Of a stretch of 64,000 nt of DNA, positions 4,414 through 44,124 are shown piece by piece. How positions within the stretch are numbered: the first letter of the stretch is position 1; the number at the start of each line of letters is the position of its first letter. Both the position numbers and the translations under genes were made by a program. This DNA comes from an uncultured virus (IMG/VR IMGVR_UViG_3300013233_000702) (lineage: Duplodnaviria; Heunggongvirae; Uroviricota; Caudoviricetes). The DNA is taken from the IMG/VR virus record IMGVR_UViG_3300013233_000702. One strand, 5' to 3'. The notes beneath the pieces were generated by a model. The model made no database searches. It was given only the letters and a program-made list of their open reading frames with translations, and was not told the origin of the DNA.

Positions 4414-4920
4414 TTAGCCCCCGAAATGCTTGATCAAGGCCGCCGTGATTGCCTGCTCTGCAGCGGCCTCGGATCGGACGAACCAGTATATGGTCTCGGC
4501 TCGGACGTTCTCATTGCCCTCGGTCAGCAATGTCCTGGCGACCATGGGCAGGTGGGTTTTAGGCACTGCACTTAAGGCAGCGCGGTTGTTCTTGCAGGCC
4601 TCGAGGCAGATATCCATTTCTCTCTTCTTGTCCGGCACGAATTTCAGGTTGTAGCCGTTCGACCTGATTGCCGCAAGGAAGGCGTCCCTGCCGGCCAGGC
4701 TGTGCCGGAGGAGCTGTGGGGTCCATGGGGCCATTAGCACGATCAGGTTCCTGGTCAGTGGCTCCGGTGTGAGTCCACCGCATCTGTAGTCAAGTTCGCC
4801 GCTGATGAGCTTCCTGCAGAGAGTCCCTGTCCTCTGGACCGATAGTCTGTTTGGTAGGCCCGGTCGCAGGGCGGCGATTATCGACTCGATCTCTGGCCGG
4901 GTCAGGCCTGTGGGATCCAT
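4414..4920 (-). CDS. divergent DUF4116-like family member
   Basis: MDPTGLTRPEI N-terminus; AAIRSNGYNLKFVP...DICLEACKNN repeat. Confidence 0.7.
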   Translation of the reverse strand: MDPTGLTRPEIESIIAALRPGLPNRLSVQRTGTLCRKLISGELDYRCGGLTPEPLTRNLIVLMAPWTPQLLRHSLAGRDAFLAAIRSNGYNLKFVPDKKREMDICLEACKNNRAALSAVPKTHLPMVARTLLTEGNENVRAETIYWFVRSEAAAEQAITAALIKHFGG

Positions 4921-5109
4921 GTGACTCCCCTTTCCTTGTATGGCTTCCCGCCCGCCTTTCCCTCATGGAAAGATGTGACAGGAGGCTTGCCTCTGGCCCC
5001 TTTCTCTGACAAGCCTCCTGCCTGATCCTTGATCTTCCTCCTTTGGGCCACGTTTCAGGAGGAAGCCGTAAACGGGGGTGCTCTTGGCATCGTCGCTCCT
5101 TCCTTTAGC

Positions 5110-5391
5110 TCAGGCGTTTGGCACGACGTCCTGGAATGCGACGTGATTGTTCGGCAAAAGGGTTCTGCCGACGCTTTTCCAGAGGCGGTCGCTGGCGTCG
5201 ACCAGGAACGTGGTCGGTCCTCCAGGTCCGAGCCAGAGGACGCGCCTTTTCCCCTTACGGGCGAGGGTGACCCTGCCGAGTCCCCTGTTTGTCTGGACGA
5301 TGAGCGTTGAACCGTGTACGCCCCACTTGATGCCGTTCTGGAGCTCATCGAGGATCTTTCTTGAAAGCTCCTTGCTCGCTTTGAGCATCAT
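5110..5391 (-). CDS. hypothetical protein
   Basis: AGGAG RBS; 93 aa ORF. Confidence 0.65.
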   Translation of the reverse strand: MMLKASKELSRKILDELQNGIKWGVHGSTLIVQTNRGLGRVTLARKGKRRVLWLGPGGPTTFLVDASDRLWKSVGRTLLPNNHVAFQDVVPNA

Positions 5392-5478
5392 CTTTCTCCT
5401 TGTGCAGAGGCTTCTGAAATGGGCGGCACCCCTTGCTGTGTTCCCTGGTGTGTCTCTCGGGGTGCCGCCCGCCCTCGG

Positions 5479-5886
5479 TCAGTCCTGGGTCTCCTCCGGC
5501 TCGGTCTCCTCCGGCTCGGTCTCCTCCGGCTCGGTCTCCTCCGGCTCGGTCTTGGCCGAGGCCTTCGCCTCCTGCTCCTTCAGGAGGAGCAGGAGCCGCT
5601 TGAGCTCCTCCCCCTTGATCTTCTTACGCGCCTTCCGGGCCGAGGCCCGGCAGCCATCGCAGAGCTTGATCTGGAAGAGATCGGAGGTGAAGGTCCAACG
5701 GCGAGCCCCGCATTCCTCGCAGATGATCTGCACCCGATACTTCTGTGCGGTCTCGTCGAAGGTGAGCGTGTCCACGTCCGCGTGAGGGTACTTCGCCGAG
5801 ATGTTCTCGCGGACCTTCTTGATCCGCTTGAGAGCGGCCTTCTGTGCCGCCTCGACCGCTTTCTCCTGCAGAGCTGTGATCTCCAT
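5479..5886 (-). CDS. Zn-ribbon protein, paralogue 3 of 3, with EPEET repeat tail
   Basis: CEEC...CDGC; 15-bp tandem repeat at ~5487-5550. Confidence 0.85.
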   Translation of the reverse strand: MEITALQEKAVEAAQKAALKRIKKVRENISAKYPHADVDTLTFDETAQKYRVQIICEECGARRWTFTSDLFQIKLCDGCRASARKARKKIKGEELKRLLLLLKEQEAKASAKTEPEETEPEETEPEETEPEETQD

Positions 5887-6232
5887 TGCTTCCTCCTCGC
5901 CCGTTCGGGCATCTGGGTGATGTCTTGTTGGGCGCGCGTGCCCCTGCGCGCCCCTGCGGGGCGGCCGCCCCGCGCCGCCGCCCCCGTGGCCGGCGGCTTG
6001 GACCCGCGCAAGACGGGTCCAAGCGGCCCACGAAGGCTAATGTGTGCTTCTGCGCCTACGGACCCGTTCCTTGACCGCCTCCCATTCCTCAGCGGTCCGG
6101 TTCTTGGCAAGCAGCCTGCGGAGAACCGGGTTGTCCCCGAGCCTCTGCACGATCCGGTGTGCCTTTTCACGGCGAAATGGTGTCCTTACGCCACTCATAA
6201 TCATCTCCTTTCCTTGCCCGGCCTCCAAGCGT

Positions 6233-7267: not shown

Positions 7268-7879
7268 TCACCCCTGCACGGCAGGGCTTGGCCCCTTGAC
7301 GAACTTGGCAGCAGCCCCATCCCGTCTCACGGCCTCCATGCAGATCTTAGGAGTCTGCTTCCTAACGAACTGCAGGACATAACCAGCCTGTCTCACCGCC
7401 GCCAGGCAGATCTCGGGGGTCTGAACCCTGACGAACTGAAGGGCATATCCGTTCTCCCTTACTGCCTCCAGACAGATCTCGGGCATCTGAACCCTGACGA
7501 ACTGCAAGGCCAGGCCATGTTCCCTGACCGCCGCGAGACACAGCTCCGGAGTCTGATCCCTGACATGCTCAATTGCATGGCCGATGTTCCTCACCGCCTC
7601 CATGCAGATCTCGGGCGTCTGCTCCCTGACGCGCTCAAGCGCGTACCCGTTCTTCCTGACCGCAGCAAGGCAGAGCTCGGGCGTCTGGTTCCTGACGAAC
7701 TGAAGGCAATACTGCGGATTTATCCTGCCCTCTGCCAGGTATTGGACGACACCGGCAACGGATGCCCTTGCGGGATTCATTGCCTCGTCCCTCGGCGGAA
7801 CCAGGCACTCCACGCCCGCGCGCCTAGTTGCCTGAACGAGGTCAAGGACCTCATCCTTCGACAGGTTCGTCAAGTCCAT
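7268..7879 (-). CDS. DUF4116-like 22-aa repeat protein
   Basis: MDLTNLSKDEV; about 6 QTPEICLxAVRxNGxAL repeats. Confidence 0.85.
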   Translation of the reverse strand: MDLTNLSKDEVLDLVQATRRAGVECLVPPRDEAMNPARASVAGVVQYLAEGRINPQYCLQFVRNQTPELCLAAVRKNGYALERVREQTPEICMEAVRNIGHAIEHVRDQTPELCLAAVREHGLALQFVRVQMPEICLEAVRENGYALQFVRVQTPEICLAAVRQAGYVLQFVRKQTPKICMEAVRRDGAAAKFVKGPSPAVQG

Positions 7880-7949: not shown

Positions 7950-8381
7950 TCACGCCGCCCTGAACGCCCTCGCCGCCCTGAACGCCCTCGCCGCCCTCAC
8001 ACCCTCCTCCAAGCAGGCCTTCGGGTCCCCGACGAACCCATAGCAGGAATCCACGATCTCATAATCCTTGACCACCTCGAACCCATAGCACCTACCACCG
8101 AGCCACTGCGAATAGGCATCCACCTCAGCGTCGACCGCCGCACGCACCAGCTCCCGCTCCTTCCGGGAGACCTTCTCGACGCCAAACGCCGTAAGGATGC
8201 GCTCCACCGGAACAAAGGCGAAACCAATCTGGCCGGAATCCCACGGACACGGGAACGGCGTCGTCGCCAACGACAGACCAGAATGATCATACATGAAGAC
8301 CGGCACAACCTCCGCCCCAGGATATTCAAGCATGATCTCCTTCCGAAGCCCATCCCAGTCCTTTTCTTCCATCTGGCGCAC
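7950..8381 (-). CDS. conserved phage protein (YDHSG/WDSGQ motif), possibly 5'-truncated
   Basis: MYDHSGLSL...WDSGQIGF; preceded out of frame by an MDLSRLN leader fragment starting at 8449. Confidence 0.7.
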   Translation of the reverse strand: MRQMEEKDWDGLRKEIMLEYPGAEVVPVFMYDHSGLSLATTPFPCPWDSGQIGFAFVPVERILTAFGVEKVSRKERELVRAAVDAEVDAYSQWLGGRCYGFEVVKDYEIVDSCYGFVGDPKACLEEGVRAARAFRAARAFRAA

Positions 8382-8535
8382 TTATCGGTCTCCTTTGCCG
8401 CCTTGACCAGCGTCCTGATCTCCTTCTCGTTCAGCCTTGAAAGGTCCATTGATCTTCTCCTCTTCTCGACGGCGCCCCAAGACCACGTCGGTCCTAGCCC
8501 TGTGCCTCCACCCAGCAAGGCGTCCTCGTTCCCTC

Positions 8536-9012
8536 TCAACGCCCCCGCAGGCACGGCTCCTTCCACTTCTTCCCCAGGAGCTCATAGATCCGCTCCTCCG
8601 AGCGCGCCTCCAGAAGCCTCCCCTCCCCGTCGAACAGACCATGCTGGTTCAGCAGCCACCCCTTCCGCTTCGCCTTCATCCGGTACGCGATCACGTACCG
8701 CGACGGACCGGTCAGGTAGAAAAGCTGCGCGCCCCACTCATCCTCCGTCCCATGGAACAGGTTCACCTGCTGCCCATCCACCAGGACCGTGGACCGGGAC
8801 GCCCCCGCCTCCACGACCTCCCCCAGGAGGGGGGCCAGCGTCAGAAGGTCCCCCTCCACGAGCAGATCGACGTCACCGATGAGTTGCTCGCCCCGGAGCA
8901 GGCTCCCGACCACCTGCACCCGCGCAGCCCCGGCATTCCTAAGCCTGCCAGTCAGTCGTTCCGCGAGCTGCACCGCCTGCTGCCTCGACATCTGCACCTT
9001 GTGACTGATCAT
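8536..9012 (-). CDS. minimal family X DNA polymerase-like nucleotidyltransferase
   Basis: GSLLRG...GDVDLL, YLTGP, LNQHGLF, EERIYELLG motifs; about 158 aa. Confidence 0.85.
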   Translation of the reverse strand: MISHKVQMSRQQAVQLAERLTGRLRNAGAARVQVVGSLLRGEQLIGDVDLLVEGDLLTLAPLLGEVVEAGASRSTVLVDGQQVNLFHGTEDEWGAQLFYLTGPSRYVIAYRMKAKRKGWLLNQHGLFDGEGRLLEARSEERIYELLGKKWKEPCLRGR

Positions 9013-9550
9013 TGTTCCCCTTTCCTTGGTGTCTGCCCACGGCCTCGGCCGCGACCGCAGCCTTCTTCTGCAGGAAATGGCCGCGCACCGCCTCGACCGC
9101 GACTGCCTTCGCCTCCTTATTGGTCGCGATGATGTTCCACAGGCCGCTCTCGACCTGCAGAGCCGTGATGGACGCGTCCGGCAACCACTTCTCTGGAACG
9201 AGCCTAATCTCCTCCGGATAGCACCTGCACGCCGCCACGTAGACCTCCTTCGTCCGAAGCTCCTCCTTGACGTGTCTGAGAACCAGACGCGACTGCTGGA
9301 CCGCCCAGATGACATCCTCTTCCCTGGTCAGGAAAGTAGCTGCCTGCGGCGCATTCCCGACGATGGCCAGTGCGATGTTCTTGGTGAACCCGTTCACGTC
9401 GATCATGTACAGATAATGATCAAACTTCCCGTCGATGAGCTTCCTGAGAAGCGTACTCGTCTGCTGCCTCCCAATCCTCTTCGGGAGGACCGGTCGGAGC
9501 GCATCGATCAGCGTCGTGATCTCCTCCTCGTTCAACCCAGACAGGTCCAT
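8939..9550 (-). CDS. divergent DUF4116-like family member
   Basis: MDLSGLNEEEI N-terminus; degenerate repeats. Confidence 0.75.
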   Translation of the reverse strand: MDLSGLNEEEITTLIDALRPVLPKRIGRQQTSTLLRKLIDGKFDHYLYMIDVNGFTKNIALAIVGNAPQAATFLTREEDVIWAVQQSRLVLRHVKEELRTKEVYVAACRCYPEEIRLVPEKWLPDASITALQVESGLWNIIATNKEAKAVAVEAVRGHFLQKKAAVAAEAVGRHQGKGNNDQSQGADVEAAGGAARGTTDWQA

Positions 9551-10607: not shown

Positions 10608-11567
10608 TTGTCTTCTCCTTTCTCATGGGGTGCGGCTAGCTGCACGGCGTGGAGGAGGTGGGTTCCTCAGAGGGCTTGGCTCTTATATGGAAAGGTCCTT
10701 GCTCCTTTTTGGCTCGTTCGACCCTGGGCTTGCGCTTGCCGACGCCCGTAAGGCCAGGGCATAGCCGTCCTGCTTGACTGCTTGGAGAACAAGTTCCGGG
10801 GTCTGGTTCAGGACGTACTTGAGGGCGCGGCCGTTCTGTTTGACTGCTGCCGTGCATAGTTCGGGGGTCTGTTTTTTGACGAGGTAGATGGCGAAGCCGT
10901 TTTGTTTTACTGCTGCCAGGCAGATGTCGTGGGTCTGGTTCAGGACGTGCTTGAGGGTGCTGCCGTCCTGTGTTACTGCTGCCAGGCAGATGTCGTGGGT
11001 CTGGTTCAGGACGTGCTCGAGGGCGCTGCCGTTCTGCTTGACTGCTTGGAGGCATAGTTCGGGGGTTTGTTCCTTGATGTATTCGAGGGCGAGGCTCAGG
11101 TATTGGTTTAGCTTGCCCTCGGTGAGTTGCTCTAGGATTTCTGTCCTTGTTCGGTATGTCGGTTGGGTTTTCTGTAGGGCGGTGAGTAGGTCTTCGATCT
11201 CTTTCCTTGTTAGTCTTGTGAGGTCCATGAGTGGTTCTCCAGTCTGGGTTCTTGCAGCCGGGCCATATGGCCCGCTCGCCGCTGGCTCGATCAGTCGACG
11301 ACCGCTTCTCCGAGCTTCCTGCTGAGACTCTAAGAGGTGCCTAAAAAGAATTTTACAGGACCGATCAAGGCCTTCGCTGCGGCCTGTTCCGCGTCTGGAC
11401 GGAACCTGGTGAGCCAGGTTATCGTTTCGATCCGGACTTCCTCGCCCCCTTCCGTCAACATGTGCTTGCCGGCGCGCTTGGCGTGGTGCTCCTGAATGCA
11501 GAACATCGGCATTTGTCTTCTCCTTTCTCATGGGGTGCGGCTAGCTGCACGGCGTGGAGGAGGTGGG
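10557..11567. repeat. 106-bp exact direct repeat (10557-10662 and 11462-11567)
   Basis: Identical sequence at offset 905, covering the phosphoesterase RBS and first codons. Confidence 0.9.
10683..11228 (-). CDS. DUF4116-like repeat protein (A/C-rich subfamily)
   Basis: MDLTRLTRKEIEDLL; about 5 repeats. Confidence 0.85.
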   Translation of the reverse strand: MDLTRLTRKEIEDLLTALQKTQPTYRTRTEILEQLTEGKLNQYLSLALEYIKEQTPELCLQAVKQNGSALEHVLNQTHDICLAAVTQDGSTLKHVLNQTHDICLAAVKQNGFAIYLVKKQTPELCTAAVKQNGRALKYVLNQTPELVLQAVKQDGYALALRASASASPGSNEPKRSKDLSI

Positions 11568-11964: not shown

Positions 11965-12205
11965 AAGCAGATCTCAGGCATCCGCCGCCATACAGAGCTC
12001 CGGCGTCCGCTTCTTCACGAACCGCAGGGCCCGGCCATCCTGCTTCACAGCCGCCATGCAGATGTTCTCAGTCTGTTCCCCATCAAGGAGGGCATAGAGA
12101 AGAATGTTCTTCTTGACGAGATCGACCTTACCCTCACTAAGATGCTCCATGATGGTCTGGTCACGCCATTTCGGACGAATCCTGCGGGGCTCACCTCCTC
12201 AGTAA
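11965..12205 (-). pseudogene. decayed DUF4116-like gene
   Basis: Nucleotide similarity to the 5' part of 12258-12872, but frame is broken. Confidence 0.6.
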
Positions 12206-12257: not shown

Positions 12258-12872
12258 TTAACACGCACCTGGCCCGCCCCTTACGTGCCTCACCGCCTCC
12301 GGGCAGACCTGCTCCCTCACGAACTTGAGAGCCAGTCTATCCTGCTTCACCGCCTCCAGGCAGATCTCGGGGGTTTGCTCCTTCACGGAGCCAAGAGCAT
12401 AACCATCCTGCTTCACCGCCTCCATGCAGATCTCGGGGGTCTGCTCCCTCACATACTGAAGAACCATCCCATTCTGCTTCACCGCCGCCAGACAGATCTC
12501 GGGGGTCTGCTCCTTAACGAACTCAAGAGCCAATCCATTCTGCCTCACCGCCTCCAGGCAGAGCTCCGGCGTCTGCTCCCTAAGGTACCCGATGGCCTCA
12601 CCATCCTGCTTCACCGCTTCCAAGCAGATCTCCTCGGTCTGCTCCTTCACGTGCTCCAGTGCCAGGCCATCCTGCTTCACAGCCGCCAGGCAGATGTTCT
12701 CAGTCTGCTCCCCAACAAGGAGGACATAGAGAAGAACATTCTTCTTGACGAGATCGATCTTCCCCGCGCCAAGGTGCTTCAGGATAGTCTGGTCACTCCA
12801 CTTCGGATGGATTCGACGTACAGCGGAGATCAGCGTCCTGATCTCTTCCTCGTTCAACCTAGACAGATCCAT
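12258..12872 (-). CDS. DUF4116-like repeat protein
   Basis: MDLSRLNEEEI; about 6 repeats. Confidence 0.88.
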   Translation of the reverse strand: MDLSRLNEEEIRTLISAVRRIHPKWSDQTILKHLGAGKIDLVKKNVLLYVLLVGEQTENICLAAVKQDGLALEHVKEQTEEICLEAVKQDGEAIGYLREQTPELCLEAVRQNGLALEFVKEQTPEICLAAVKQNGMVLQYVREQTPEICMEAVKQDGYALGSVKEQTPEICLEAVKQDRLALKFVREQVCPEAVRHVRGGPGAC

Positions 12873-13000: not shown

Positions 13001-13885
13001 TCAATGTCCTTGATCTCCTACGCAAGGTGTTCCTTTTTTCCTCCAGCGCAGAAACCTCCAGCATGGGCGACCCTTGAACTGCTCCCTCTGCTTCACCGCC
13101 GCCTGATGGATCTCCGGCGTCTGCTCCTTCACGAACTGGAAGGCAGTCCCATCCTGCTTTACCGCCGCCAGGCAGATCTCCGGCGTCTGCTCCTTAACGA
13201 ACTCAAGAGCCAATCCATTCTGCCTCACCGCCTCCAGGCAGAGCTCCGGCGTCTGCTCCCTAAGGCACCCGATGGCCTCACCATCCTGTCTCACCGCCGC
13301 CAGGCAGAGCTCCGGCGTCTGCTCATCAATGGCAGAGATGGCAGAACCATCCTGTTGAACCGCCGCCATACAGACCTCCGGCGTCTTGTCCCTGATGAGA
13401 CGAATGTTTTTCCCGACATGCCGTACGGCCTCCAGACAGAGCTCCCGAGTCTGCTCCTCCACGCACCCAATGGCAAAACTGGCACGCTTCACGGCCTCCA
13501 TGCAGATCTCGGGGGTCTGCTCCTTCACGAACCGCAGGGCACCCCCATCCTGCTTCACCGCCGCCAGACAGATCTCTGGTGTCTGCTCCTCAACGAACTG
13601 GAGAGCCATCCCATCCTGTCTCACCGCCGCCAGGCAGAGCTCGGGGGTCTGCTCCTTCACGTGCCACAGGGCCTTCCCGCTCTGACGAACTGCTGCTAGA
13701 CAGATCGCTTCGGTCTGCTCCCCGACGATGAGCACATGTAGTAGAAGACCCATGTGCACGAACTCATCACCGTCCTTCTGGATGAAGTCACTGAGGATCG
13801 TCTCAGCGTCCTCGTCGATCATGACCCTCCTTGCCGCACTGATCAGCGTCCTGACCTCCACCTCGTTCAACCCCGTGATGTCCAT
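13001..13885 (-). CDS. DUF4116-like repeat protein
   Basis: MDITGLNEVEV; about 9-10 repeats. Confidence 0.88.
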   Translation of the reverse strand: MDITGLNEVEVRTLISAARRVMIDEDAETILSDFIQKDGDEFVHMGLLLHVLIVGEQTEAICLAAVRQSGKALWHVKEQTPELCLAAVRQDGMALQFVEEQTPEICLAAVKQDGGALRFVKEQTPEICMEAVKRASFAIGCVEEQTRELCLEAVRHVGKNIRLIRDKTPEVCMAAVQQDGSAISAIDEQTPELCLAAVRQDGEAIGCLREQTPELCLEAVRQNGLALEFVKEQTPEICLAAVKQDGTAFQFVKEQTPEIHQAAVKQREQFKGRPCWRFLRWRKKGTPCVGDQGH

Positions 13886-13888: not shown

Positions 13889-14779
13889 TCACCTCCTCTC
13901 GCGCACAAGAACTGCTCCCTCTACCGCCAGACAGAGCTCCGGCGTCTGCTCCTTCACGAACTGGAGGGCATCCCCATTCTGCTTGACCGCCTCCATGCAG
14001 ATCTCGGGGGTCTGCTCCTTCACGAATGGGAGAGCCCGGCCATCCTGCTTTACCGCCTCCAGGCAGACCTCTGGGGTCTTTTTCTTGACATAATAGAGGG
14101 CACTACCACCCTGCCTCACCGCCGCCAGACAGAGCTCGGGGGTCTGCTCCTTCACGTACTGGAGGGCATCCCCATTCTGCTTGACCGCCTCCATGCAGAT
14201 CTCGGGGGTCTGCTCCTTCACGAACATGAGAGCCGCGCCATTCTGCTGAACCGCCTCCAGGCAGACCTCTGGGGTCTTTTTCTTGACATAATAGAGGGCA
14301 CTACCATCCTGTCTCACCGCCGCCAGGCAGAGCTCCGGCGTCTGCTCCCTCACATACTGAAGCGCCCCACCGCTCTGCCTGACTGCTGCCATACAGACTT
14401 CTGGAGTCCGATCCTTGACGTGCTGCAGAACGTAGCCATTCTGCTTGACCACCTCCAGACACATATCCGGGGTCTGCCTCCGCACATACCGTAAGGCCCT
14501 GAGGCTCCGCCTCAGGGCCTCCATGCAGATCTCCGGCGTCTGCTCCCTCACGTGCTGCAGGGTCCAACCATTCTCCTTTACCGCCGCCAGACAGATCCTC
14601 TCGGTCTGCTCGCCAACGAGCAGTACGTAAAGGAGAATGTTCAACCCATAGAGGTCAATCTTACCCTCAACGAGCTTATTTAGGATAATACTTTCTCTCC
14701 ACCTCGAGCATTTGTCCGTCGACTTCACCGCCTTGACCAGCGTCCTGACCTCCTCCTCGTTCAACCCAGACAGGTCCAT
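13889..14779 (-). CDS. DUF4116-like repeat protein
   Basis: MDLSGLNEEEV; about 10 repeats with an internal 3-repeat duplication. Confidence 0.88.
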   Translation of the reverse strand: MDLSGLNEEEVRTLVKAVKSTDKCSRWRESIILNKLVEGKIDLYGLNILLYVLLVGEQTERICLAAVKENGWTLQHVREQTPEICMEALRRSLRALRYVRRQTPDMCLEVVKQNGYVLQHVKDRTPEVCMAAVRQSGGALQYVREQTPELCLAAVRQDGSALYYVKKKTPEVCLEAVQQNGAALMFVKEQTPEICMEAVKQNGDALQYVKEQTPELCLAAVRQGGSALYYVKKKTPEVCLEAVKQDGRALPFVKEQTPEICMEAVKQNGDALQFVKEQTPELCLAVEGAVLVRERR

Positions 14780-15436: not shown

Positions 15437-16324
15437 TCACTCTTCTCGCGGTTTAGAGGGCCGGAGTCTGCTCCTAGATGCTTTATCGCCATCGGGTCCT
15501 AGCACCCTGGCCCGTACGTAAAGGAGAATGTTCAACCCATAGAGGTCAATCTTACCCTCAACGAGCTTATTTAGGATAGTACTTTCTCTCCACCTCGAGC
15601 ACTTGGCCGTCGACTTCACCGCCTTGACCAGCGTCCTGACCTCCTCCTCATTCAGCCTAGACAGGTCCCTCACGTGCCTCACCGCCTCTAGGCAGATGTT
15701 CTCGGTCTGCTCCTTCACGAACTGTAATGCCCAGCTATTCTGCTTGACCGCCTCCAGGCAGAGCCTCTCGGTCTGCTCCTTCACGAACTGTAGTGCTCGG
15801 CCATTCTGCTTGACCGCCTCCATGCAGATCTCGGGGGTCTGCTCCTTCACGAACTCGAGAGTCAGGCCATTCTGCTTGATCGCCTCCAGGCGGATCTCCT
15901 CAGTCTGTTCCCCGAGGTAGTGAAGGGCAAATCCGTTCTTCCTCACCGCCTCTAGGCAGATCTCGGGAGTCTGCTCCTTAACGTGCTGCAGGATCAGACC
16001 ATTCTTCTTGACCGCCTCTAGGCAGAGCCTCTCGGTCTGCTCCTTTACGAATTGGAGTGCCCGGCCGTTCTGCTTGACCGCCTCTAGGCAGATCTCGGGG
16101 GTCTGCTTTTTCACGTTCTGTAGAACGAGCCCGTCCTGCTTAACAGCAGCCATGCACATGTTCTCAGTCTGCTCCCCATCAATGTAGAGAAGAACATTGA
16201 CGAGCTTGATCTTCCCCTCGCCAAGGTGCTTCAGGATAGTCCGGTCATGCCATTTCGGGTTCGTCCTGCGGACGGCTCTGATCAGCGTCTTGATCTCCTC
16301 TTCGTTTAGCCTTGTCAGGTCCAT
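15437..16324 (-). CDS. DUF4116-like repeat protein with a second leader domain fused at the C-terminus
   Basis: About 8 repeats, then DLSRLNEEEVRTLVKAVKS matching the start of 13889-14779. Confidence 0.85.
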   Translation of the reverse strand: MDLTRLNEEEIKTLIRAVRRTNPKWHDRTILKHLGEGKIKLVNVLLYIDGEQTENMCMAAVKQDGLVLQNVKKQTPEICLEAVKQNGRALQFVKEQTERLCLEAVKKNGLILQHVKEQTPEICLEAVRKNGFALHYLGEQTEEIRLEAIKQNGLTLEFVKEQTPEICMEAVKQNGRALQFVKEQTERLCLEAVKQNSWALQFVKEQTENICLEAVRHVRDLSRLNEEEVRTLVKAVKSTAKCSRWRESTILNKLVEGKIDLYGLNILLYVRARVLGPDGDKASRSRLRPSKPREE

Positions 16325-16406: not shown

Positions 16407-17003
16407 TCATAAGTGCTCATGTGCCGGGCTGAAGGGTTGGTCTCCTATCTCTTTCCTGGTTAGGGTGTGTCTGTCTTCCTTGAGTTTCTTTCTTAGTGAT
16501 TGGTGTTGGATTGTTTTGTTTGTAGACAGATGGCTTTTTATTAAGGTAGTTGTTTCCTCCATTTGTTCTTTGAGTTTTGGGTTTTTGATGTGTTGGAGGG
16601 TGTGGCCGTTCTGTTTGATGGCTTGTAGGCAGATTTCTTCTGTTTGGTGTTTGACGTAGTAGAGGGCGTGGCCGTTCTGTTTGACTGCTTGTTGGCAGAT
16701 TTCTTCTGTTTGGTGTTGGGCGTGTTTGAGGGCGTGGCCGTTCTGTTTGACTGCTTGTTGGCAGATTTCTTCTGTTTGGTGTTGGGCGTGTTTGAGGGCG
16801 TGGCCGTTCTGTTTGACTGCTTGTTGGCAGATGGCGGGGGTTTGGTTCTTGACGTATTGGAGGGCTTGTCTTAGGAGTGAGGAGTGTTGTCCTTTGATGA
16901 GTTGTTTGAGGATGGTTGTTCTTGGTTGTTTCTGTGGGAGGACTTTCTGTAGGGCTTGTATGAGGTCTTCTATTTCTTCTTTGGTTAGGTTTGTGAGGTC
17001 CAT
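16407..17003 (-). CDS. DUF4116-like repeat protein (A/C-rich subfamily)
   Basis: MDLTNLTKEEIEDL; near-exact 66-bp repeats. Confidence 0.88.
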   Translation of the reverse strand: MDLTNLTKEEIEDLIQALQKVLPQKQPRTTILKQLIKGQHSSLLRQALQYVKNQTPAICQQAVKQNGHALKHAQHQTEEICQQAVKQNGHALKHAQHQTEEICQQAVKQNGHALYYVKHQTEEICLQAIKQNGHTLQHIKNPKLKEQMEETTTLIKSHLSTNKTIQHQSLRKKLKEDRHTLTRKEIGDQPFSPAHEHL

Positions 17004-17746
17004 GCTTCCTCCTTGAGCTCTTGTTCGAGTTTCTTTCTTAGCTTCTTCATTAGTGTTTGGTCTTTGACGTATTGGAGGGATTGTTCGTTCTGTTTGATTG
17101 CTTGTTGGCAGATTTCTGGTGTTTGGTGTTTGACGTATTGGAGGATCAGTCCATCTTGTTTGACTGCTGCGAGGCAGATTTCTTCTGTTTGGTGTTTGAC
17201 GTATTGGAGGGCCCAGCCGTTTTGTTTGATTGCTTGTAGGCAGATGTCGGGGGCCTGGTGTTTGACGAAGTTGAGGGCGAGGCCGGTTTGTTTGACTGCT
17301 TGTTGGCAGAGTCCCGGGGTTTGGTTCTTGACGAAGTGGAGGGCGAGGCCGTCCTGTTTGATTGCTTGTTGGCAGATTTCGGGGGTTTTGTTCTGGACGT
17401 ATTGGAGGGTGTATCCGTCCTGTTTGACTGCTTGGAGGCAGATGTCGTGGGTTTGTTCCTCGATGAAGTGGAGGGCCCAGCCGTCCTTTTTGACTGCTTG
17501 TAGGCAGATGTCGGGGGTTTGGTTCTGGACGTGCTTGATGGCGAGGCCGTTTTCATTGACTGCTGCGAGGCAGATGTTGGTGGTTTGGTTCTTGACGTAT
17601 TGGAGGGCTTGCTTTAGGAGTGAGGAGAGTTGTCCTTTGATGAGTTGTTCTAGGATGGTGGTTCTTGGTTGTTTCTGTGGGAGGACTTTCTGTGTGGCTT
17701 GTATGAGGTCTTCTATTTCTTCTTTGGTTAGGTTTGTGAGGTCCAT
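16985..17746 (-). CDS. DUF4116-like repeat protein (A/C-rich subfamily)
   Basis: MDLTNLTKEEIEDL; about 8 repeats. Confidence 0.88.
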   Translation of the reverse strand: MDLTNLTKEEIEDLIQATQKVLPQKQPRTTILEQLIKGQLSSLLKQALQYVKNQTTNICLAAVNENGLAIKHVQNQTPDICLQAVKKDGWALHFIEEQTHDICLQAVKQDGYTLQYVQNKTPEICQQAIKQDGLALHFVKNQTPGLCQQAVKQTGLALNFVKHQAPDICLQAIKQNGWALQYVKHQTEEICLAAVKQDGLILQYVKHQTPEICQQAIKQNEQSLQYVKDQTLMKKLRKKLEQELKEEAWTSQT

Positions 17747-18342
17747 GCCTCCTCCTTGAGCTCTTGTTTGAGTTTCTTTCTTAGTGTGGGGTCTTTGACG
17801 TATTGGAGGGCGTGTTCATTCTGTTTGACTGCTGTGAGGCAGAGTCCTGGTGTTTGGTGCTTGACGTATTGGAGGGCGTGGCCGTCCTGTTTGACTGCTT
17901 GTTGGCAGATGTCTGGTGTTTGGTTCTTGACGTACCTGAGGGCGTGGCTGTTTTGTTGGACTGCTGCGAGGCAGATGGCCTCTGTTTGGTGTTTGACGTG
18001 TAGGAGGGCGTAGCCGGTTTGTTTGACTGCTTGTTGGCAGATGTCCTCGGTTTGGTGCTGGACGTAGGCGAGGGCGTGGACGTTCTGTTTGATTGCTGCC
18101 AGGCAGGTGTCGGGGGCCTGGTGCTTGACGTGGTAGAGAGCGAGTCCGTTCTGTTTGACTGCTTGGAGGCAGATGGCAGGGGTTTGTCTATAGGCGAGGT
18201 TTTTGAGTGCTTGTCCTAGGTATGAGGATAGCCGTCCTTGGATGAGCTGTTCGAGGGTGGTTATTCTTGGTTGTGGTTTGAGTTTCTGTATGGCTTGGAG
18301 GAGGTCTTCTATTTCGTCCTTGGTTAGGTTTGTGAGGTCCAT
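17728..18342 (-). CDS. DUF4116-like repeat protein (A/C-rich subfamily)
   Basis: MDLTNLTKDEIEDL; about 6 repeats. Confidence 0.88.
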   Translation of the reverse strand: MDLTNLTKDEIEDLLQAIQKLKPQPRITTLEQLIQGRLSSYLGQALKNLAYRQTPAICLQAVKQNGLALYHVKHQAPDTCLAAIKQNVHALAYVQHQTEDICQQAVKQTGYALLHVKHQTEAICLAAVQQNSHALRYVKNQTPDICQQAVKQDGHALQYVKHQTPGLCLTAVKQNEHALQYVKDPTLRKKLKQELKEEAWTSQT

Positions 18343-18343: not shown

Positions 18344-18943
18344 CTATTCCTCCTTGAGCTCTTGTTTGAGTTTCTTTCTTAGTGCGGGGTCTTTGACGTA
18401 TTGGAGGGCGAGTCCGTTATACTTGACTGCTTGTTGGCAGAGGTCTTCGGTTTGGTGCTGGACGTAGAAGAGGGCGTGGCCGTCCTGTTTGACTGCTTGT
18501 TGGCAGATTTCTGTGGTTTGGCGTTTGACGTACTCGAGGGCTGTGCCGTCCTGCCTTACAGCCTCCAGGCTGATGTCTTCGGTTTGGTGCTGGACGTAGT
18601 AGAGGGCAGTGCCGTCCTGTTTTATTGCTGCGAGGCAGATGTCCTCGGTTTGGTGCTGGACATAGTGGAGTGCGAGTCCGTTTTGTTTGACTGCTTGTAT
18701 GCAGATGTCCTCGGTTTGGTGCCTGACGTGCTGGAGGGCTCGACCGTTTTGTTTGACTGCTGCGAGGCAGATGGCCTCGGTTTGGTGCTTGACGTGTTGG
18801 AGGGCTTGCTCTAGGTGCGGAGAATGTTGTCCTTGGATTAGTTGTTTTAGGATGGCGATTCGTGGTTGTTTCTGTTGTTGGGTTTTCTGTATGGCTTGGA
18901 GGAGGTCTTCTATCTCTTCCTTGGTTAGGTTTGTGAGGTCCAT
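18344..18943 (-). CDS. DUF4116-like repeat protein (A/C-rich subfamily)
   Basis: MDLTNLTKEEIEDL; about 6 repeats. Confidence 0.88.
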   Translation of the reverse strand: MDLTNLTKEEIEDLLQAIQKTQQQKQPRIAILKQLIQGQHSPHLEQALQHVKHQTEAICLAAVKQNGRALQHVRHQTEDICIQAVKQNGLALHYVQHQTEDICLAAIKQDGTALYYVQHQTEDISLEAVRQDGTALEYVKRQTTEICQQAVKQDGHALFYVQHQTEDLCQQAVKYNGLALQYVKDPALRKKLKQELKEE

Positions 18944-24783: not shown

Positions 24784-25099
24784 CCTTGCTTCCTCCTGGT
24801 CCGTGGACCAGGGTACCGGGGTATGACTCCCGGTCAATACCCATTCTTGCGGCGAGGCCGCGCACAGCAAACGAGACGGTTCCGTCCTCGTTGACGCCGT
24901 ACCTCTCGCAGAGCTCCTTGGTGCGCTCGGTCCGGAAGCAGATGACGATCCCCTTCTCCTTCGCCTGTCCGAGGCCAGCCGGGTCGAGGACGCCGAGTCC
25001 GATCGCCTCCTCGAGGATGGCTTCGAACTCCTCCTTGTCCATGATGACGCTGTAGTGTGGGCCGTTCTGTAGGTTGAACCGGTACGTGACTGCCTTCAT
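24776..25099 (-). CDS. hypothetical protein
   Basis: AGGAGG RBS; coupled to neighbours. Confidence 0.7.
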   Translation of the reverse strand: MKAVTYRFNLQNGPHYSVIMDKEEFEAILEEAIGLGVLDPAGLGQAKEKGIVICFRTERTKELCERYGVNEDGTVSFAVRGLAARMGIDRESYPGTLVHGPGGSKDG

Positions 25100-30233: not shown

Positions 30234-30758
30234 TCAGTCCGCCGCAAGATTACCGAATACTGAACAGATTCTCCTGAACTCCGGATTCCTGATCCTGGAG
30301 ATGACCATTGGGTTCTGCTTCACGGCCTCGATGCAGACCGCGAGGGTCTGTTCCTTGATGTGCTCCAGGGCCCATCCGTTCTGCTTGACCGCTTCAAGGC
30401 AGAGTTCCTCGGTCTGTTCCCGCACGAACCGGATGTTCAGCCCGTCCTTGCGCACGGCGCAGAGGCAGATGGCCGGGGTCTGGCAGACGACGTGCCGGAT
30501 CGAGCGTGAACGCCTGGAGACGGCAGCCAGGCAGAGTTCTTCGGTCTGTTCATCAAGCTCGGGCAGGATCCACGGGTCCTGCTTGACGGCTGCAAGGCAG
30601 ATTCCCGGCGTCTGTTCCTCGAGATTGGCAATGACCACGGTCAAGGGCAGCCGATTGATCTCAATGAGACAGTCGTCGTCGCGGAGGTGAGGAACGACCT
30701 TCCTGACTGCCCTGATCAGGATGCGCAGTTCGCGCTCGTTCAACCTAGACAGGTCCAT
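30234..30758 (-). CDS. DUF4116-like repeat protein
   Basis: MDLSRLNERELRILI; about 5 repeats. Confidence 0.85.
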   Translation of the reverse strand: MDLSRLNERELRILIRAVRKVVPHLRDDDCLIEINRLPLTVVIANLEEQTPGICLAAVKQDPWILPELDEQTEELCLAAVSRRSRSIRHVVCQTPAICLCAVRKDGLNIRFVREQTEELCLEAVKQNGWALEHIKEQTLAVCIEAVKQNPMVISRIRNPEFRRICSVFGNLAAD

Positions 30759-31188
30759 TCAGGTCTCCTTTCAGGCATGCCGTCTTTAGGGATCGGTCTG
30801 CTTCATACAGAGCTTCTACGAAGTACGGATTCCTGACCATGGAGACGGCCCTCGGGTTCTGCTTCACGGCCTCAATGCAGACCGCAAGGGTTTGGTCCAT
30901 GACGTGCTCCAGGACCAACCCGTTCTGCTTGACCGCTTCAAGGCAGAGTTCCTCGGTCTGTTCTCCGAACTCGGAAAGGAGCCTGGGATCTCGCTTCACG
31001 ATGGCAAGGCCGATTTCAGGCGTCAGTTCATCGAGGACGGCGAAAACAGAGATCATGGGAATCTGACTTATTTCAAGGAGGCAGTCGCCGTCGTTGGGCC
31101 GTGGAGCCCCTTTGAAAGTGAGCATTACTTTTCTGACTGCCCTGATCAGGATGCGCAGTTCTCGCTCGCTCAGCCTAGACAGGTCCAT
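30745..31188 (-). CDS. DUF4116-like repeat protein
   Basis: MDLSRLSERELRILI; about 3 repeats. Confidence 0.85.
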   Translation of the reverse strand: MDLSRLSERELRILIRAVRKVMLTFKGAPRPNDGDCLLEISQIPMISVFAVLDELTPEIGLAIVKRDPRLLSEFGEQTEELCLEAVKQNGLVLEHVMDQTLAVCIEAVKQNPRAVSMVRNPYFVEALYEADRSLKTACLKGDLNGPV

Positions 31189-34608: not shown

Positions 34609-34926
34609 ATGGCAAGGGCCCAGAAGATCGACAAGTCCTCCAGGCAGAAGCAGAGGGCCGTCTCCGTGCAGTTCGGAAACGGTCCGGTACGGACGGTCGT
34701 GGTGAAGCCACCACCGCCAGGGCACTGCAGCGTCTGCCACCGCCGGCACAGGCCCGAGGAGCCTCACGACCCGACGTCCCTGCCCTATCAGATCTCGTTC
34801 AGACAGGAACATGGAAGGGGCGTGACATGGAAGGATGCTCTCGGGCACTGCCCTGAGACTATCAGGCGGTTCTGGCGGGAGAACCTCCAGAAGCGCAGCC
34901 GCTGGACCGAGCCCGGTCAGGGCTGA
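34609..34926 (+). CDS. Cys/His-rich hypothetical protein, antisense to the block
   Basis: CSVCHRRH...PH...TWKDALGHC. Confidence 0.7.
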   Translation: MARAQKIDKSSRQKQRAVSVQFGNGPVRTVVVKPPPPGHCSVCHRRHRPEEPHDPTSLPYQISFRQEHGRGVTWKDALGHCPETIRRFWRENLQKRSRWTEPGQG

Positions 34927-35531
34927 CCCTGGTCCCTAGCCTTCCTGGCGTTCTCTGCCCAGCGAGGAATAAGCCCGGTAGCGTCCTCTACCTGTCTCAG
35001 GATCCTGGCGAGCCTCTCTGCCCTGCCGATGGAGCGAGGAACCGGCCCTATAGCGGCCTCGACCTGGTCCAGGATCCTCTTGGGCACGTGATACACCATG
35101 CTCGGGTTCCGCTCCAAGGCGGTCCAGCACATCTCGAGGTCCTTAAGGGAGTCCGGGACATCAAGTAGCGCCCTGGGGTCGCTCCGCACGGCCGCAATGC
35201 ATACCTCCCTGGTCCTGATCCTTCGCGGGACCATCTTCAGGGCCATCCCATTATTCTGCACAGCCTCGAGGCAGACCTCCCTGGTCCTCAGGTTGAGCGG
35301 TACGAGGTTCAGGGCCTCGCCGCATTGCTTGAGGCAGGCCAGGCAGATCGGAACGGTAAGGGGCTTGACGTGCACAAGGACAGGTCTGACGTTGAAGTCG
35401 CTCCTGACGATCTTCGTCAGGACCTCTGCGACGGCCCAGGAACACCGCTGCTCAAAGGTCCTGTTCCAGCTTTCCCGCACTGCTCCCATGATGCTCTTGA
35501 TCTCTGCTTCGTTCAGTCCGGTGACGTCCAT
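34917..35531 (-). CDS. DUF4116-like repeat protein (24-aa RTREVC type)
   Basis: MDVTGLNEAEI; RTREVCLEAVQNNGMALKMVP. Confidence 0.82.
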   Translation of the reverse strand: MDVTGLNEAEIKSIMGAVRESWNRTFEQRCSWAVAEVLTKIVRSDFNVRPVLVHVKPLTVPICLACLKQCGEALNLVPLNLRTREVCLEAVQNNGMALKMVPRRIRTREVCIAAVRSDPRALLDVPDSLKDLEMCWTALERNPSMVYHVPKRILDQVEAAIGPVPRSIGRAERLARILRQVEDATGLIPRWAENARKARDQGQP

Positions 35532-41734: not shown

Positions 41735-41845
41735 CCTGCTCCTCCTTTCCGGGCGCGGCCCCGTGCCGCCCCGCCGTCCCCGTGGCGGCGCGCTCGGTCC
41801 CGCGCAAGATCCCCCAAGACATGGCCAGTCCACTCCTAACCACTC

Positions 41846-42226
41846 CTATAGCCGTTCCCAGTTCCTGCGCATCCGGTCGACGGTGAACTGCGGCACTCCG
41901 TGGACGCTCTTCCAGTTCCCCTTCGCCTCCACGATCCGCAGCCCGCATCCGTGCCTCCGGGCCATCTCGACGTATGGCCTGATCTCCCGCTTCCGGACGA
42001 AGGTATTGGCGACGACCACGTCGCGCCCCTCACTGAGGAGCTTCTCGGTCCTCCTCCTGCACCATGCGTGGGCCGCTCCGATTCGGGAGGGAACAAAGAC
42101 ATACCGACCGTTCCGGACCATATACAGGTCGGCCTCCACCAGCTCGTGGCCGGGGAAGTCGCGCTCCGCCATGGTGGTCTTTCCGCTTCCGGGCAGGCCT
42201 CTAATCAGGACAAGTTCAGCCATCAT
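41846..42226 (-). CDS. P-loop kinase (AAA_33/PNK-like)
   Basis: IRGLPGSGKTT; EAD; VVVANTF; SVHGVP. Confidence 0.85.
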   Translation of the reverse strand: MMAELVLIRGLPGSGKTTMAERDFPGHELVEADLYMVRNGRYVFVPSRIGAAHAWCRRRTEKLLSEGRDVVVANTFVRKREIRPYVEMARRHGCGLRIVEAKGNWKSVHGVPQFTVDRMRRNWERL

Positions 42227-42969
42227 TCCTCCCGTGGATTGAGTCCGTCCGTGAACGCCAAGGCATGGCTGTAGAGGAGAGCGAGGATGCCCAGTGGCAC
42301 GATAAACCACGAGGCCTTCTGGGTCCACTTTCTGTGCCGGAAGGAATCGTCATGCCACCCGGCCTGACTGATGAAGCCAGTACTGTCCAGGTTCTTTGCT
42401 CCGACCGAGATATAGAGATCCATTCCGGAATAGTCGCCCTTCAGGGGCTTGCCGTCCTCATGGCACAGGAAGAATCTGGTCCGCTTGCCATCCGGCAGAG
42501 GAACTGCCCTGAGGGGCACGTCGTCCGGAGATCCAGTGGGGGCAATCTCCTTGCCGGTCCTTGCGCTCTCGAGAAATCTCTTGGTCGCCGAGACCTTGAT
42601 TGAGTCGTCAACGCCGGGAGCTTGACAGAGCTCCAGCTTATTGCCGACGACCCTCCATGCCCACCCGAGGCTGTCCTTGAACTTGGCGTCGTCGAAGCTC
42701 CTTGCCCTGTGGATCCGGTGCCTGTCCCCGGCTGCCCTGACGCCCGCATACTTATCGTCCACGTCAGCAAGACCGCTGGCAAGCCAGATCGCCGCAAGGC
42801 CGACCAGGAAGTTAGCCTTCGGACCGGTCACGTGCAGCTTGTAGAAGAGCCTGCTGGAGACCACGATTAGCCAACCGATGAACACGACCGCTAGGTAGGC
42901 GATGTACAGGAACACCGCCGTCTTGGCGAAGTCCAGGACTGACTCAGCTGCTCCCCTTTTCTCACTCAT
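42223..42969 (-). CDS. membrane protein
   Basis: Hydrophobic segments at both termini. Confidence 0.7.
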   Translation of the reverse strand: MSEKRGAAESVLDFAKTAVFLYIAYLAVVFIGWLIVVSSRLFYKLHVTGPKANFLVGLAAIWLASGLADVDDKYAGVRAAGDRHRIHRARSFDDAKFKDSLGWAWRVVGNKLELCQAPGVDDSIKVSATKRFLESARTGKEIAPTGSPDDVPLRAVPLPDGKRTRFFLCHEDGKPLKGDYSGMDLYISVGAKNLDSTGFISQAGWHDDSFRHRKWTQKASWFIVPLGILALLYSHALAFTDGLNPREE

Positions 42970-43571
42970 CTTCCTCTCCTTTTCTCTGCGGCCATCTCCT
43001 CAGCCAAACGCCGTATCTCGGTCCAGCGGCTGTTCTCGACATGGACAAGCGCGACCCTGTCGTTCAGGTAAGCCGCAGCGCACGTCCTGTTGGTCCTTTT
43101 CCGGACGTACGCCAGGAGATGTCCCTTGCGGGCCACCGCCTCGAGGCAGATCCTCTCGGTCTGGTTCCGGACGTAGTGAAGCATCTCTGGGTTGAGCCGG
43201 ACCGCCTCGAGACACATCGCCTCGGTCTGGCGGTCGACGTAGCGGATGGCCTCAGGCCTGATCCGGACAGCCTCCAGGCACAGGCCGTGGTCCTGCCTCA
43301 CCTCGGCAATGGCCTTCGCGGTCTGCATGACCGCCATGAGGACGGTCGTGCGGTCGACCTCCCTCCTTATGAGGAAGATGGCCCTGCACGTGGTGTGCGC
43401 GGGGAGACAACAGGAGTGAATGTGTCTGAGGATTGGCTCGTCCTTCATTCTCGCATAGTTGCCGTTGGAGAGGCGTACCGCCTCAATGAGGCGCCGCAGC
43501 TGTCCTCCCTTCATCCTGGACAGCAGACGGTCCATGATGGCGACGTTCTGTTCCCTTCTCCCTGTTATCAT
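42966..43571 (-). CDS. DUF4116-like repeat protein
   Basis: RMKDEPIL leader; QTEAMCLEAV repeats. Confidence 0.8.
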   Translation of the reverse strand: MITGRREQNVAIMDRLLSRMKGGQLRRLIEAVRLSNGNYARMKDEPILRHIHSCCLPAHTTCRAIFLIRREVDRTTVLMAVMQTAKAIAEVRQDHGLCLEAVRIRPEAIRYVDRQTEAMCLEAVRLNPEMLHYVRNQTERICLEAVARKGHLLAYVRKRTNRTCAAAYLNDRVALVHVENSRWTEIRRLAEEMAAEKRRGR

Positions 43572-44124
43572 CGGCCTTCCTCCGTAACGCGAGGACGTCC
43601 AGGAACCTCTGCCTGGAGATCGCAACCGAGCCATCCTGCGCGGCCAGGCGCCTAATCTCGACGGTCTTGTCCCTGACGAACTCTATGCTGTGTGGCTGCT
43701 CCCGCACCGCAGCCAGACAGATCTCCTCGGTCTGCTCCTCTACGTCCCGGAGCGTCCAGCCGTTCTGGCGGACGGCTTCCAGGCACATTTCAGGAGTCTG
43801 CCTTCGCACGTAGCGGAGGGCCCATGGGGTGGCCCGGACCGCCTCCAGGCACGTCTCCGGATCCTGCTTGGCGTAGATGAGGGCCTTTGCGCTCTGCATC
43901 ACGGCCACCAGGACTAAGGTCCGGTCGACCGGTCCATCCAGCCCGTTGACGGCCGTGCAGATGGTCTTCCGTGGAATGCTGCCGTGGAACAGGTGCTTGA
44001 TGACTGTCGAGTCCTTCATCCGCCCGTAGTTGCTGTTCGCGTCCTTGATGGCCGCAATCAATTGCCGTAGGGGCTCTTCGCCGATCCTGTTCATTAGGTC
44101 GGATAGGATCCGTTCATGCCTCAT
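43483..44124 (-). CDS. DUF4116-like repeat protein
   Basis: RMKDSTVI leader; QTPEMCLEAVRQNGW repeats. Confidence 0.8.
   Translation of the reverse strand: MRHERILSDLMNRIGEEPLRQLIAAIKDANSNYGRMKDSTVIKHLFHGSIPRKTICTAVNGLDGPVDRTLVLVAVMQSAKALIYAKQDPETCLEAVRATPWALRYVRRQTPEMCLEAVRQNGWTLRDVEEQTEEICLAAVREQPHSIEFVRDKTVEIRRLAAQDGSVAISRQRFLDVLALRRKADDNREKGTERRHHGPSAVQDEGRTAAAPH

Follow-up and report, generated by a model that had tools for sequence, protein, structure and literature searches.

The window analysed here is a 64,000-nucleotide stretch of an uncultured tailed phage (IMG/VR record IMGVR_UViG_3300013233_000702) and covers a 64-kb half of the 128,400-bp contig of the source record (row P0032). 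Its GC content is approximately 60%, and it is tightly packed with short genes, among which the minus strand predominates from approximately 3.9 to 52.8 kb. Positions 4414–44124 contain approximately 26 genes and gene fragments for proteins built from the 22-residue repeat of the Pfam family DUF4116 (PF13475). Every one of them is on the minus strand, roughly 20 seem intact and ten lie nearly end to end at 12258–20212 (Table 1), in agreement with the first-pass annotation of this DNA, which had listed approximately 25 variable-repeat genes and fragments with the same ten-gene run. The members follow a common plan, in which an N-terminal head of approximately 45 amino acids precedes 2–10 units of 22 amino acids (66 bp), in many cases with a helix at the C-terminal end. 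The maximum of ten units, again as first described, is found in 13001–13885 and 13889–14779. The set is an expanding, recombining repeat-gene family of an already catalogued Pfam kind, and it is unusually large for a phage.

To define the unit, a hidden Markov model (HMM) was built from 53 motif matches and run on the six-frame translation, with the plus strand as internal control. It identified 120 stretches, 118 on the minus strand and two on the plus strand, both of the latter with negative scores; 95 units were free of gaps and stops at 15 bits or more. Tandem Repeats Finder reported arrays with periods of 66, 132, 198 and 264 nt between 7317 and 26936. The earlier assignment of the repeats as DUF4116-like was confirmed, as all seven members scanned matched PF13475 above its 24.9-bit cut-off (27.0–159.8 bits) and an eighth, 42966–43634, also exceeded it. 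No Pfam match was found in the divergent members 8939–9550 and 25096–25557. The repeat proteins matched PHROGs 17056, 5925, 31839 and 25923, whose function is annotated as unknown, with E-values down to 4.5e-34; PADLOC and NCBIfam gave nothing meaningful for them, and a sequence search of the PDB gave no match at E≤1. No scanned member matched the TALE, PPR or PUF families of Pfam at E≤0.01, the unit being of 22 amino acids against 33–36, and there was no match to the armadillo, HEAT or ankyrin families among the members scanned.

A Shine-Dalgarno (SD)-like pentamer is present 4–18 nt upstream of all 21 strong MD(L/I/P/V) starts, compared with 130 of the 528 minus-strand ATGs (25%) in 4000–45000, and the phage uses bacterial-type ribosome binding sites. 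Since the starts carry these motifs, the heads are conserved and the scaffold of the unit has a low dN/dS (0.26, see below), we take the members to be real genes.

The head stands at the start of every array-bearing open reading frame (ORF) and has the consensus MD(L/I/P/V)xxLxxxE(I/V)xx(L/I)(I/V)xA (MDLxxLxxEE...). An HMM of the head gave 28 stretches between 4786 and 44070, all on the minus strand (21 strong, six weak and one an out-of-frame seed artefact at 14706–14834), although this model was seeded with the heads themselves and its matches are therefore partly by construction. The first 17 residues are near-invariant in the six H/Q-type genes of Table 1, where the proportion of synonymous differences (pS) is 0.08–0.41 in 14 of the 15 pairs and 0.00 in the closest. 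Independent support came from a second profile, made from 33 heads of this phage and of a 320-kb phage and searched against 1.84 billion cluster representatives. The head is rare, with 31 representatives matched at E≤1e-3. In 29 of these the match fell within the first 76 residues, in proteins of 72–479 amino acids; the two exceptions were internal matches in long proteins, one of them a NACHT/ankyrin/HEAT protein. DUF4116 was detected at E≤1e-3 in 17 of the 28 head matches scanned, and above the Pfam cut-off in 14. Ten matches were traced to this contig, the 320-kb contig, a 138-kb contig and short contigs, and the head extends beyond the lineage of the 320-kb phage. It had no good match in any of 37 prokaryotic genome loci or, apart from P0056 and P0030, in the top 119 homologues, and a word-indexed protein search with the head profile returned the window's own four proteins and nothing else.

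The head has no match to a Pfam family, and none to the F-box at E≤1. It was also compared directly with an F-box–DUF4116 protein (P0043), where hhalign gave a probability of 0.3%, and the F-box protein Cdc4 (1nex_B) reached Z 3.7 in the fold search; the head was accordingly rejected as an F-box. Folded alone it gave a pLDDT of 81.3 and a best Z of 4.6, to RNA polymerase omega chains, UBA/CUE domains and others, a likeness too weak to use, and its scores in the ESM Atlas (0.81–0.82) were under the useful range.

We next consider the predicted structure. AlphaFold2 was run on the product of 16985–17746, aligned with paralogs and homologues (56 sequences), and returned a confident alpha-solenoid (pLDDT 91.2, pTM 0.81), which bears out the comparison with solenoid proteins made in the first-pass annotation. 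Each modelled unit consists of a helix A (positions 4–13) and a short helix B (positions 15–20). The modelled head has three helices (residues 8–21, 28–37 and 41–50) and is continuous with the solenoid at pLDDT 96–97, while a long C-terminal helix (residues 230–252) closes the rod; residues 145–161, corresponding to one unit, are of low confidence. The model agrees with the alpha-solenoid predicted for DUF4116 by trRosetta in PMC8078820.

Foldseek against the PDB gave no match at E≤1e-3, with designed armadillo proteins at E 0.07–0.2, and exhaustive structural alignment against the PDB returned generic solenoids (alphaRep, designed armadillo, DARPin and PPR proteins). The best match to a solved structure, 6fsq_A (Z 5.9, root-mean-square deviation (rmsd) 5.0 over 132 residues), is weak and generic, and PPR chains (Z 4.3–5.1, rmsd 10–16 Å) are inside the generic solenoid range. 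Among predicted viral structures there were 28 matches at E≤1e-3, nearly all of them giant-virus DUF4116 proteins, some with an F-box. The closest were DUF4116 proteins of Klosneuvirus, Hokovirus, Marseillevirus (F-box proteins among them) and Bodo saltans virus, and Agrobacterium phage Atu_ph07 was also matched, slightly below the E≤1e-3 threshold.

The first-pass annotation had described a fixed scaffold with variable residues after the G and AL of each unit, and this is what the 95 full units display. Their entropy is 3.38 bits at position 16, 3.16 at position 19, 2.37 at position 20, 2.32 at position 1 and 2.15 at position 22, against 0.08–0.86 bits at the scaffold positions Q2, T3, C7, A10, V11, L18 and V21. 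Positions 16, 19 and 20 are at i, i+3 and i+4 on helix B, with the conserved A17, L18 and V21 opposite, and because of this periodicity the variable residues should form a single exposed stripe along the modelled rod. The arrangement on one face, for which the first-pass annotation had suggested looking, is to this extent supported. However, 119 unrelated DUF4116 proteins (742 units) vary at the same positions (3.83 bits at position 16 and 3.05 at position 19), so that the pattern characterises the family as a whole and not a local mechanism of diversification.

Position 16, the residue after G, is occupied by L (21), H (16), R (11), Y (10), W (10), S (5), T (4), F, M and E (3 each) and others. 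When compared with the expectation from codon composition, W (10 observed, 0.5 expected), Y (10, 2.0), H (16, 5.5) and L (21, 8.5) are enriched, as is R, whereas V, P, N and I are each absent against 4–9 expected. In two other phage expansions the position is W/Y/H/R-rich or D/Y/R/L/F/H-rich. This spectrum fits what might be expected of an interaction surface.

Selection was assessed from 31 independent nearest unit pairs (62 of the 95 units) differing at no more than 14 nt, using the Nei-Gojobori method; nearest-neighbour pairing and gene conversion are sources of bias in these values. In the window dN/dS was 1.05 at positions 16/19/20, 0.26 at the scaffold and 0.61 over all positions. A 145-kb viral contig (108 units, 40 pairs) gave 0.37 at positions 16/19/20 and 0.20 overall, and the 320-kb contig (85 units, 33 pairs) gave 0.71 and 0.31. 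Position 16 taken alone had values of approximately 1.5, 1.29 and 1.27 in the window, the 145-kb and the 320-kb contigs, each with 4–6 synonymous changes and not significant. Diversifying selection is thus unsupported by dN/dS at positions 16/19/20. The binder repertoire that had been proposed for these genes is plausible, and the earlier interpretation as a whole is partly supported.

Signs of recombination are seen at several levels. Within 13889–14779 three units are duplicated as a 198-bp block (period 198 in Tandem Repeats Finder, 92% matches) with 11 codons changed, five synonymously and six non-synonymously, and the non-synonymous changes are all at unit positions 12–20. Genes 12258–12872 and 13001–13885 have one 66-bp unit in common with no nucleotide difference, within a 118-nt tract of 96% identity. 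The second head copy in 15437–16324, of which 158 nt are 96% identical to the head of 13889–14779, is the scar of a gene-fusing deletion. An exact 106-nt direct repeat (10557–10662 and 11462–11567, 905 nt apart) brackets 10683–11228 and suggests that a duplication or insertion took place there recently. For 63 of the 95 units the nearest unit is in a different gene, and at least five loci are head-only or fragmentary. From the block duplications, common tracts, gene fusion and fragments we conclude that recombination occurs in the 66-bp register. As a process, recombination between 66-bp units had been correctly foreseen; as an adaptive device for diversification it is not supported.

Within the H/Q-type block neighbouring genes overlap at three junctions (16985/17003, 17728/17746 and 18925/18943), the stop of one falling 19 nt within the other, and since these overlaps are alike the units of duplication were whole genes together with their junctions. 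The six genes of 16407–20212 and 10683–11228 form a codon island that is rich in H and Q and in A-ending codons: the frequency of A at third codon positions (A3) is 0.29–0.46 and that of G or C (GC3) 0.52–0.69, with the GC content of the island DNA falling to 0.50, compared with an A3 of mostly 0.05–0.12 (up to 0.21) and a GC3 of 0.67–0.80 in the remaining members. One possibility is that the island was recently acquired and then amplified. A further head type, '..RMKDxTI..', is found in the four members 25096–25623, 25927–26178, 42966–43634 and 43483–44124. For 18925–19611 the longer ORF that reaches 19941 was discarded, since the repeats of the neighbouring gene are also open in this alternative frame.

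Table 1. Coordinates of DUF4116 family members, fragments and candidate members in the window.
Coordinates	Strand	Feature	Supporting match
4414..4920	-	Member, 168 aa, head + weak DUF4116 repeats	Head 42.0 bits; PF13475 27.0 bits (cut-off 24.9)
7268..7879	-	Member, 203 aa, head + 6 units	PF13475 E 2.7e-30
8318..8449	-	Head-only remnant	Head 39.8 bits, no units behind
8939..9550	-	Divergent member, 203 aa (P0121), head + degenerate repeat-like region	Head 55.4 bits; no Pfam match
10683..11228	-	Member, 181 aa from MDL start, head + 5 units, A-rich third codon positions	
11974..12186	-	Fragment, partial head + 1-2 units	Unit and head HMMs
12258..12872	-	Member, 204 aa, head + 6 units; first by coordinate in ten-gene run	
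13001..13885	-	Member, 294 aa, head + 10 units	
13889..14779	-	Member, 296 aa, head + 10 units, internal 198-bp (3-unit) duplication	PF13475 E 1.1e-47
15437..16324	-	Member, 295 aa, head + 8 units, 3' fusion to second head copy (15539-15667)	
16407..17003	-	H/Q-type member, 198 aa (P0032), head + 4 units	
16985..17746	-	H/Q-type member, 253 aa, head + 8 units + C-terminal helix; folded protein	PF13475 E 1e-40
17728..18342	-	H/Q-type member, 204 aa, head + 6 units	
18344..18943	-	H/Q-type member, 199 aa, head + 6 units	
18925..19611	-	H/Q-type member, 228 aa from MDL start, head + 7 units	
19637..20212	-	H/Q-type member, 191 aa, head + 6 units; last by coordinate in ten-gene run	
23079..23684	-	Member, 201 aa from MDL start, head + 5 units	
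23755..24079	-	Head-only gene, 61 aa (23894-24079), with unit scraps	
25096..25623	-	Possible divergent member, weak MKD-type head, no detectable DUF4116	Head 7.4 bits
25927..26178	-	Possible divergent member, weak MKD-type head	Head 11.9 bits
26636..27229	-	Member, 197 aa, short head + 4 units >5 bits	
30234..30758	-	Member, 174 aa, head + 5 units, partly degenerate	PF13475 E 1.3e-19
30745..31188	-	Member, 147 aa (P0123), head + 2 units	
34917..35531	-	Member, 204 aa (P0122), head + 2 units >5 bits + weak third	PF13475 E 2.7e-18
42966..43634	-	Member, MKD-type head (probable start near 43535), 2 units >5 bits + weak third	PF13475 27.7 bits
43483..44124	-	Member, 213 aa (P0131), MKD-type head + 3 units	PF13475 E 1e-10; head profile 56.9 bits

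Comparable families were found in two other large viral contigs. In the 320-kb contig 14 of the 17 listed ORFs have a homologous head, which aligns with those of the window, and the family there (L013, L015, L016, L020 and L043) consists of proteins of approximately 150–260 amino acids with the same head, DUF4116 units and a 'KDPxLRxxI' tail, in which position 16 is likewise the most variable (3.58 bits). It differs from the window family in GC content (0.41–0.45 against 0.60), in the greater dispersal of its copies, in heads that start MHW..TKEQL rather than MDL..L..EE, and in its lower overall dN/dS (0.31 against 0.61). The 145-kb (144.8-kb) contig has nine abutting arrays with 108 units, seven of the arrays in L003 and two in L004 at its other end. 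Its genes have the same plan with a head of their own, 'MDTISKxKIDHKLQTGKK', and a tail of their own, YVDPNIFLSEDNENAGGK, and represent a parallel expansion with a different cap.

More widely, at least three arrays were present in 10 of the 49 viral or phage loci examined, and 25 of the 37 prokaryotic genome loci had a single array. The family was matched in six of 50,697 phage records. Most bacterial holders of DUF4116 are metagenome-assembled genomes (MAGs) of gut Clostridia and Bacteroidales, and the family is also present in one Rickettsiales MAG and one Asgard archaeal MAG. The sole viral locus of high GC content (L022, 0.64) has only the repeats in common with the window. The longest arrays among the loci compared are in an uncultured Bacillales MAG (L060), where 75 units in arrays of 32, 34 and 9 occupy 8.6 kb.

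What might such a family do? The reading that we favour, and hold to be modestly probable, is that the genes encode a paralogous set of protein-binding solenoids with which the phage, in the course of infection, acts on host proteins. The family has been enlarged by the tandem duplication of entire genes and continues to change by unequal or gene-conversion-like recombination in the 66-bp register, which makes new orders and numbers of units and leaves fusions and fragments as by-products. In the predicted product a three-helix head is followed by 2–10 helix-turn-helix units stacked as an alpha-solenoid, often capped by the C-terminal helix, and the conserved head would serve as a common cap or a common docking element. 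The solenoids would be protein- or peptide-binding modules in which the short helices supply the contact stripe through positions 16, 19 and 20. Individual paralogs would differ in binding partner, and the phage would deploy them on host proteins for takeover or counter-defence.

As to the kind of target, two proteins from elsewhere combine DUF4116 with another domain, P0043 with an F-box (33.1 bits, cut-off 20.5 bits) and P0038 with an IBR domain. In other proteins F-box and IBR domains recruit substrates to ubiquitin ligases. The isoelectric points of the members, between 5.1 and 10.7, show that they are not uniformly basic. Because of these fusions and the mixed charge, protein targets appear more likely than nucleic acid. 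The solenoid fold, the predicted stripe of aromatic, cationic and leucine residues and the place of Marseillevirus F-box proteins among the closest predicted viral structures also speak for protein binding, and a preprint lists PF13475 among domains 'involved in ubiquitination'. A stronger version of the proposal would be a modular code, in which positions 16 and 19 of each unit contact a single residue of an extended host peptide, or a single nucleotide, the target is spelled by the sequence of the units, recombination writes new specificities, the approximately 26 paralogs constitute a library against varied host defence proteins and the head couples them to one effector or docking site; we give this little credence.

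Several observations weigh against the favoured reading. dN/dS at positions 16/19/20 is 1.05 in the window and does not reach 1 in either of the other phages, and the overall value of 0.61 exceeds the 0.20 and 0.31 found elsewhere; several copies are broken, and part of the family may be decaying. The binomial p-values for position 16 are inflated, as the units are related by descent, and the large hydrophobic residues at this position would also fit packing between units. The exposure of positions 16, 19 and 20 is deduced from helical periodicity in the model. A largely neutral or decaying expansion, arising by slippage or unequal crossing-over, in which most copies are roleless and the variable positions are unconstrained surface, would be in keeping with a dN/dS of approximately 1 at those positions and of 0.61 overall, with the five or more fragments or head-only remnants and the fused gene, and with variability at the same positions across the whole DUF4116 family. 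We nevertheless consider it unlikely, since the scaffold has a dN/dS of 0.26, the head has been kept despite synonymous change, SD-like motifs precede 21/21 starts, position 16 departs strongly from the residues expected on codon composition, and independent expansions in two other large phages have an overall dN/dS of 0.20 and 0.31.

The other explanations concern the place of action and the ligand. T4 internal proteins carry a capsid-targeting sequence, and by analogy the head could be a targeting or docking signal that loads varied solenoid cargoes into the capsid, to be packaged in the virion or injected. A single N-terminal head in all members with a varying remainder would suit such a role, as would its place in 29 of 31 profile matches, which is confined to the opening 76 residues of small proteins. 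However, the modelled head is continuous with the solenoid (pLDDT 96–97) and resembles an N-terminal cap, the genes lie amid replication and repair genes and not structural ones, the 145-kb phage has the same plan with a different head, and no cleavage motif was seen, although none was sought; packaging is therefore judged unlikely. We consider very unlikely a nucleic-acid reader with a repeat code like that of TALE, PPR or PUF proteins, reading one base per unit through positions 16 and 19, even though the regular scaffold with one or two hypervariable positions per unit recalls such codes and PPR structures are among the weak fold matches (Z 4.3–5.1). The unit has 22 amino acids, L is the commonest residue at position 16 and W/Y/L dominate there family-wide, the isoelectric points show no consistent basic charge, the partner domains found elsewhere are F-box and IBR, and the fold matches are generic, with a best Z of 5.9 to alphaRep and armadillo designs. 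These findings speak against the nucleic-acid targets that the first-pass annotation had also put forward. Finally, the proteins could be effectors directed at eukaryotes, encoded by a phage of a protist-associated bacterium and with DUF4116 borrowed from eukaryotes or giant viruses. DUF4116 is indeed common in giant viruses, F-box fusions included, and a Rickettsiales and an Asgard archaeal MAG are among its holders, but the bacterial holders are mostly MAGs of Clostridia and Bacteroidales from the gut, neither a secretion signal nor an effector domain was seen, and the head is unlike an F-box (hhalign 0.3%; no Pfam match at E≤1), so that this origin seems extremely unlikely.

The DUF4116 genes sit amid replication, repair and small uncharacterised genes, away from structural genes. 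The window encodes a MoxR-like AAA ATPase with a vWA/DUF2201 protein, a helicase, a DksA/TraR zinc finger protein and DUF2997 and DUF1257 proteins. Because its AAA ATPase matches phrog_8638 (E 2e-131) and is 34% identical to AAA ATPases of approximately 109-kb Rhizobium phages (tblastn), the element is a large tailed phage without a close sequenced relative; viral contigs searched via this ATPase for close phage relatives gave none that was confirmed. The repeats were also considered as the target of a diversity-generating retroelement, a candidate that was rejected as no reverse-transcriptase family was found among the 62 + 7 ORFs scanned in the 64-kb half of the 128.4-kb contig. The window had no match in Rfam, and in 11800–23200 neither promoter-like sites (4 against 2.7 in shuffles) nor terminator-like sites (23 against 17.5) were above the shuffled background.

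A very GC-rich intergenic repeat of 85 nt occurs in eight copies (4308–4392, 5950–6034, 6469–6553, 7126–7210, 11896–11980, 14879–14963, 22982–23066 and 41746–41830), 66–92% identical to the reference copy and mostly directly 3' of minus-strand genes, DUF4116 genes included. It has no Rfam match and its predicted RNA fold equals that of shuffles (z 0.01). Scattered on the minus strand (10176–10607, 35545–36234, 37812–39755, 41846–42226 and 44114–44803) is a repair set of a LigD-type 3'-phosphoesterase, a WGR-domain protein, an NAD-dependent DNA ligase with BRCT, an AAA_33 kinase-like protein and an RNA-ligase-like protein, which may be a kit for break or tRNA repair. A second small paralog family (168–506 (+), 2754–3155 (+) and 5479–5886 (-), also 1754–2170 (+)) has an N-terminus like 'AMAKAVEAAQKAALKRxKKVR' and no Pfam or PHROG match; the leader MGETATPERAEGGSM is common to its ORFs at 1754 and 2754. 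The adjacent large ORFs 55281–57776 (+) and 57778–61494 (+), of 831 and 1238 amino acids, had no match in Pfam, PHROGs, PADLOC or NCBIfam, and the larger had no tblastn match among the 50,697 phage records. An HTH_3 (Xre-type) protein with a long run of GK dipeptides in its N-terminal part is encoded at 51787–52179 (-).

DUF4116 is a large family of protists, giant viruses, bacteria and phages that has been catalogued without functional study in the literature. The papers found on DUF4116/PF13475 included none on phages, and a term search of a jumbo-phage survey (PMC7824862) gave no mention of the family. The window has the largest phage DUF4116 set met in this comparison, approximately 26 copies with natural variation in the number and order of units and a conserved head common to at least two other large contigs. 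With respect to unit length (22 amino acids), consensus and variable positions the members are as in the DUF4116 proteins of Pfam; what sets them apart is the number of copies in 40 kb of one phage and the rare head.

The giant-virus and poxvirus repeat families likewise comprise many clustered, recombining paralogs of solenoid binders per genome. The ankyrin/F-box families of poxviruses have a role in host range. Unlike the ankyrin, F-box and DUF4116 sets of large eukaryotic viruses, however, the present family belongs to a bacterial virus and has no F-box. If its paralogs bind different host proteins, it would be the bacterial-virus counterpart of the ankyrin/F-box families, and would also provide a compact natural scaffold for binder design at 22 amino acids per unit. 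In this last respect the proteins resemble the designed armadillo and alphaRep binders in having a two-layer helical solenoid, but there is no sequence relation, and the unit of 22 amino acids has two helices compared with the 42 amino acids and three helices of the armadillo repeat.

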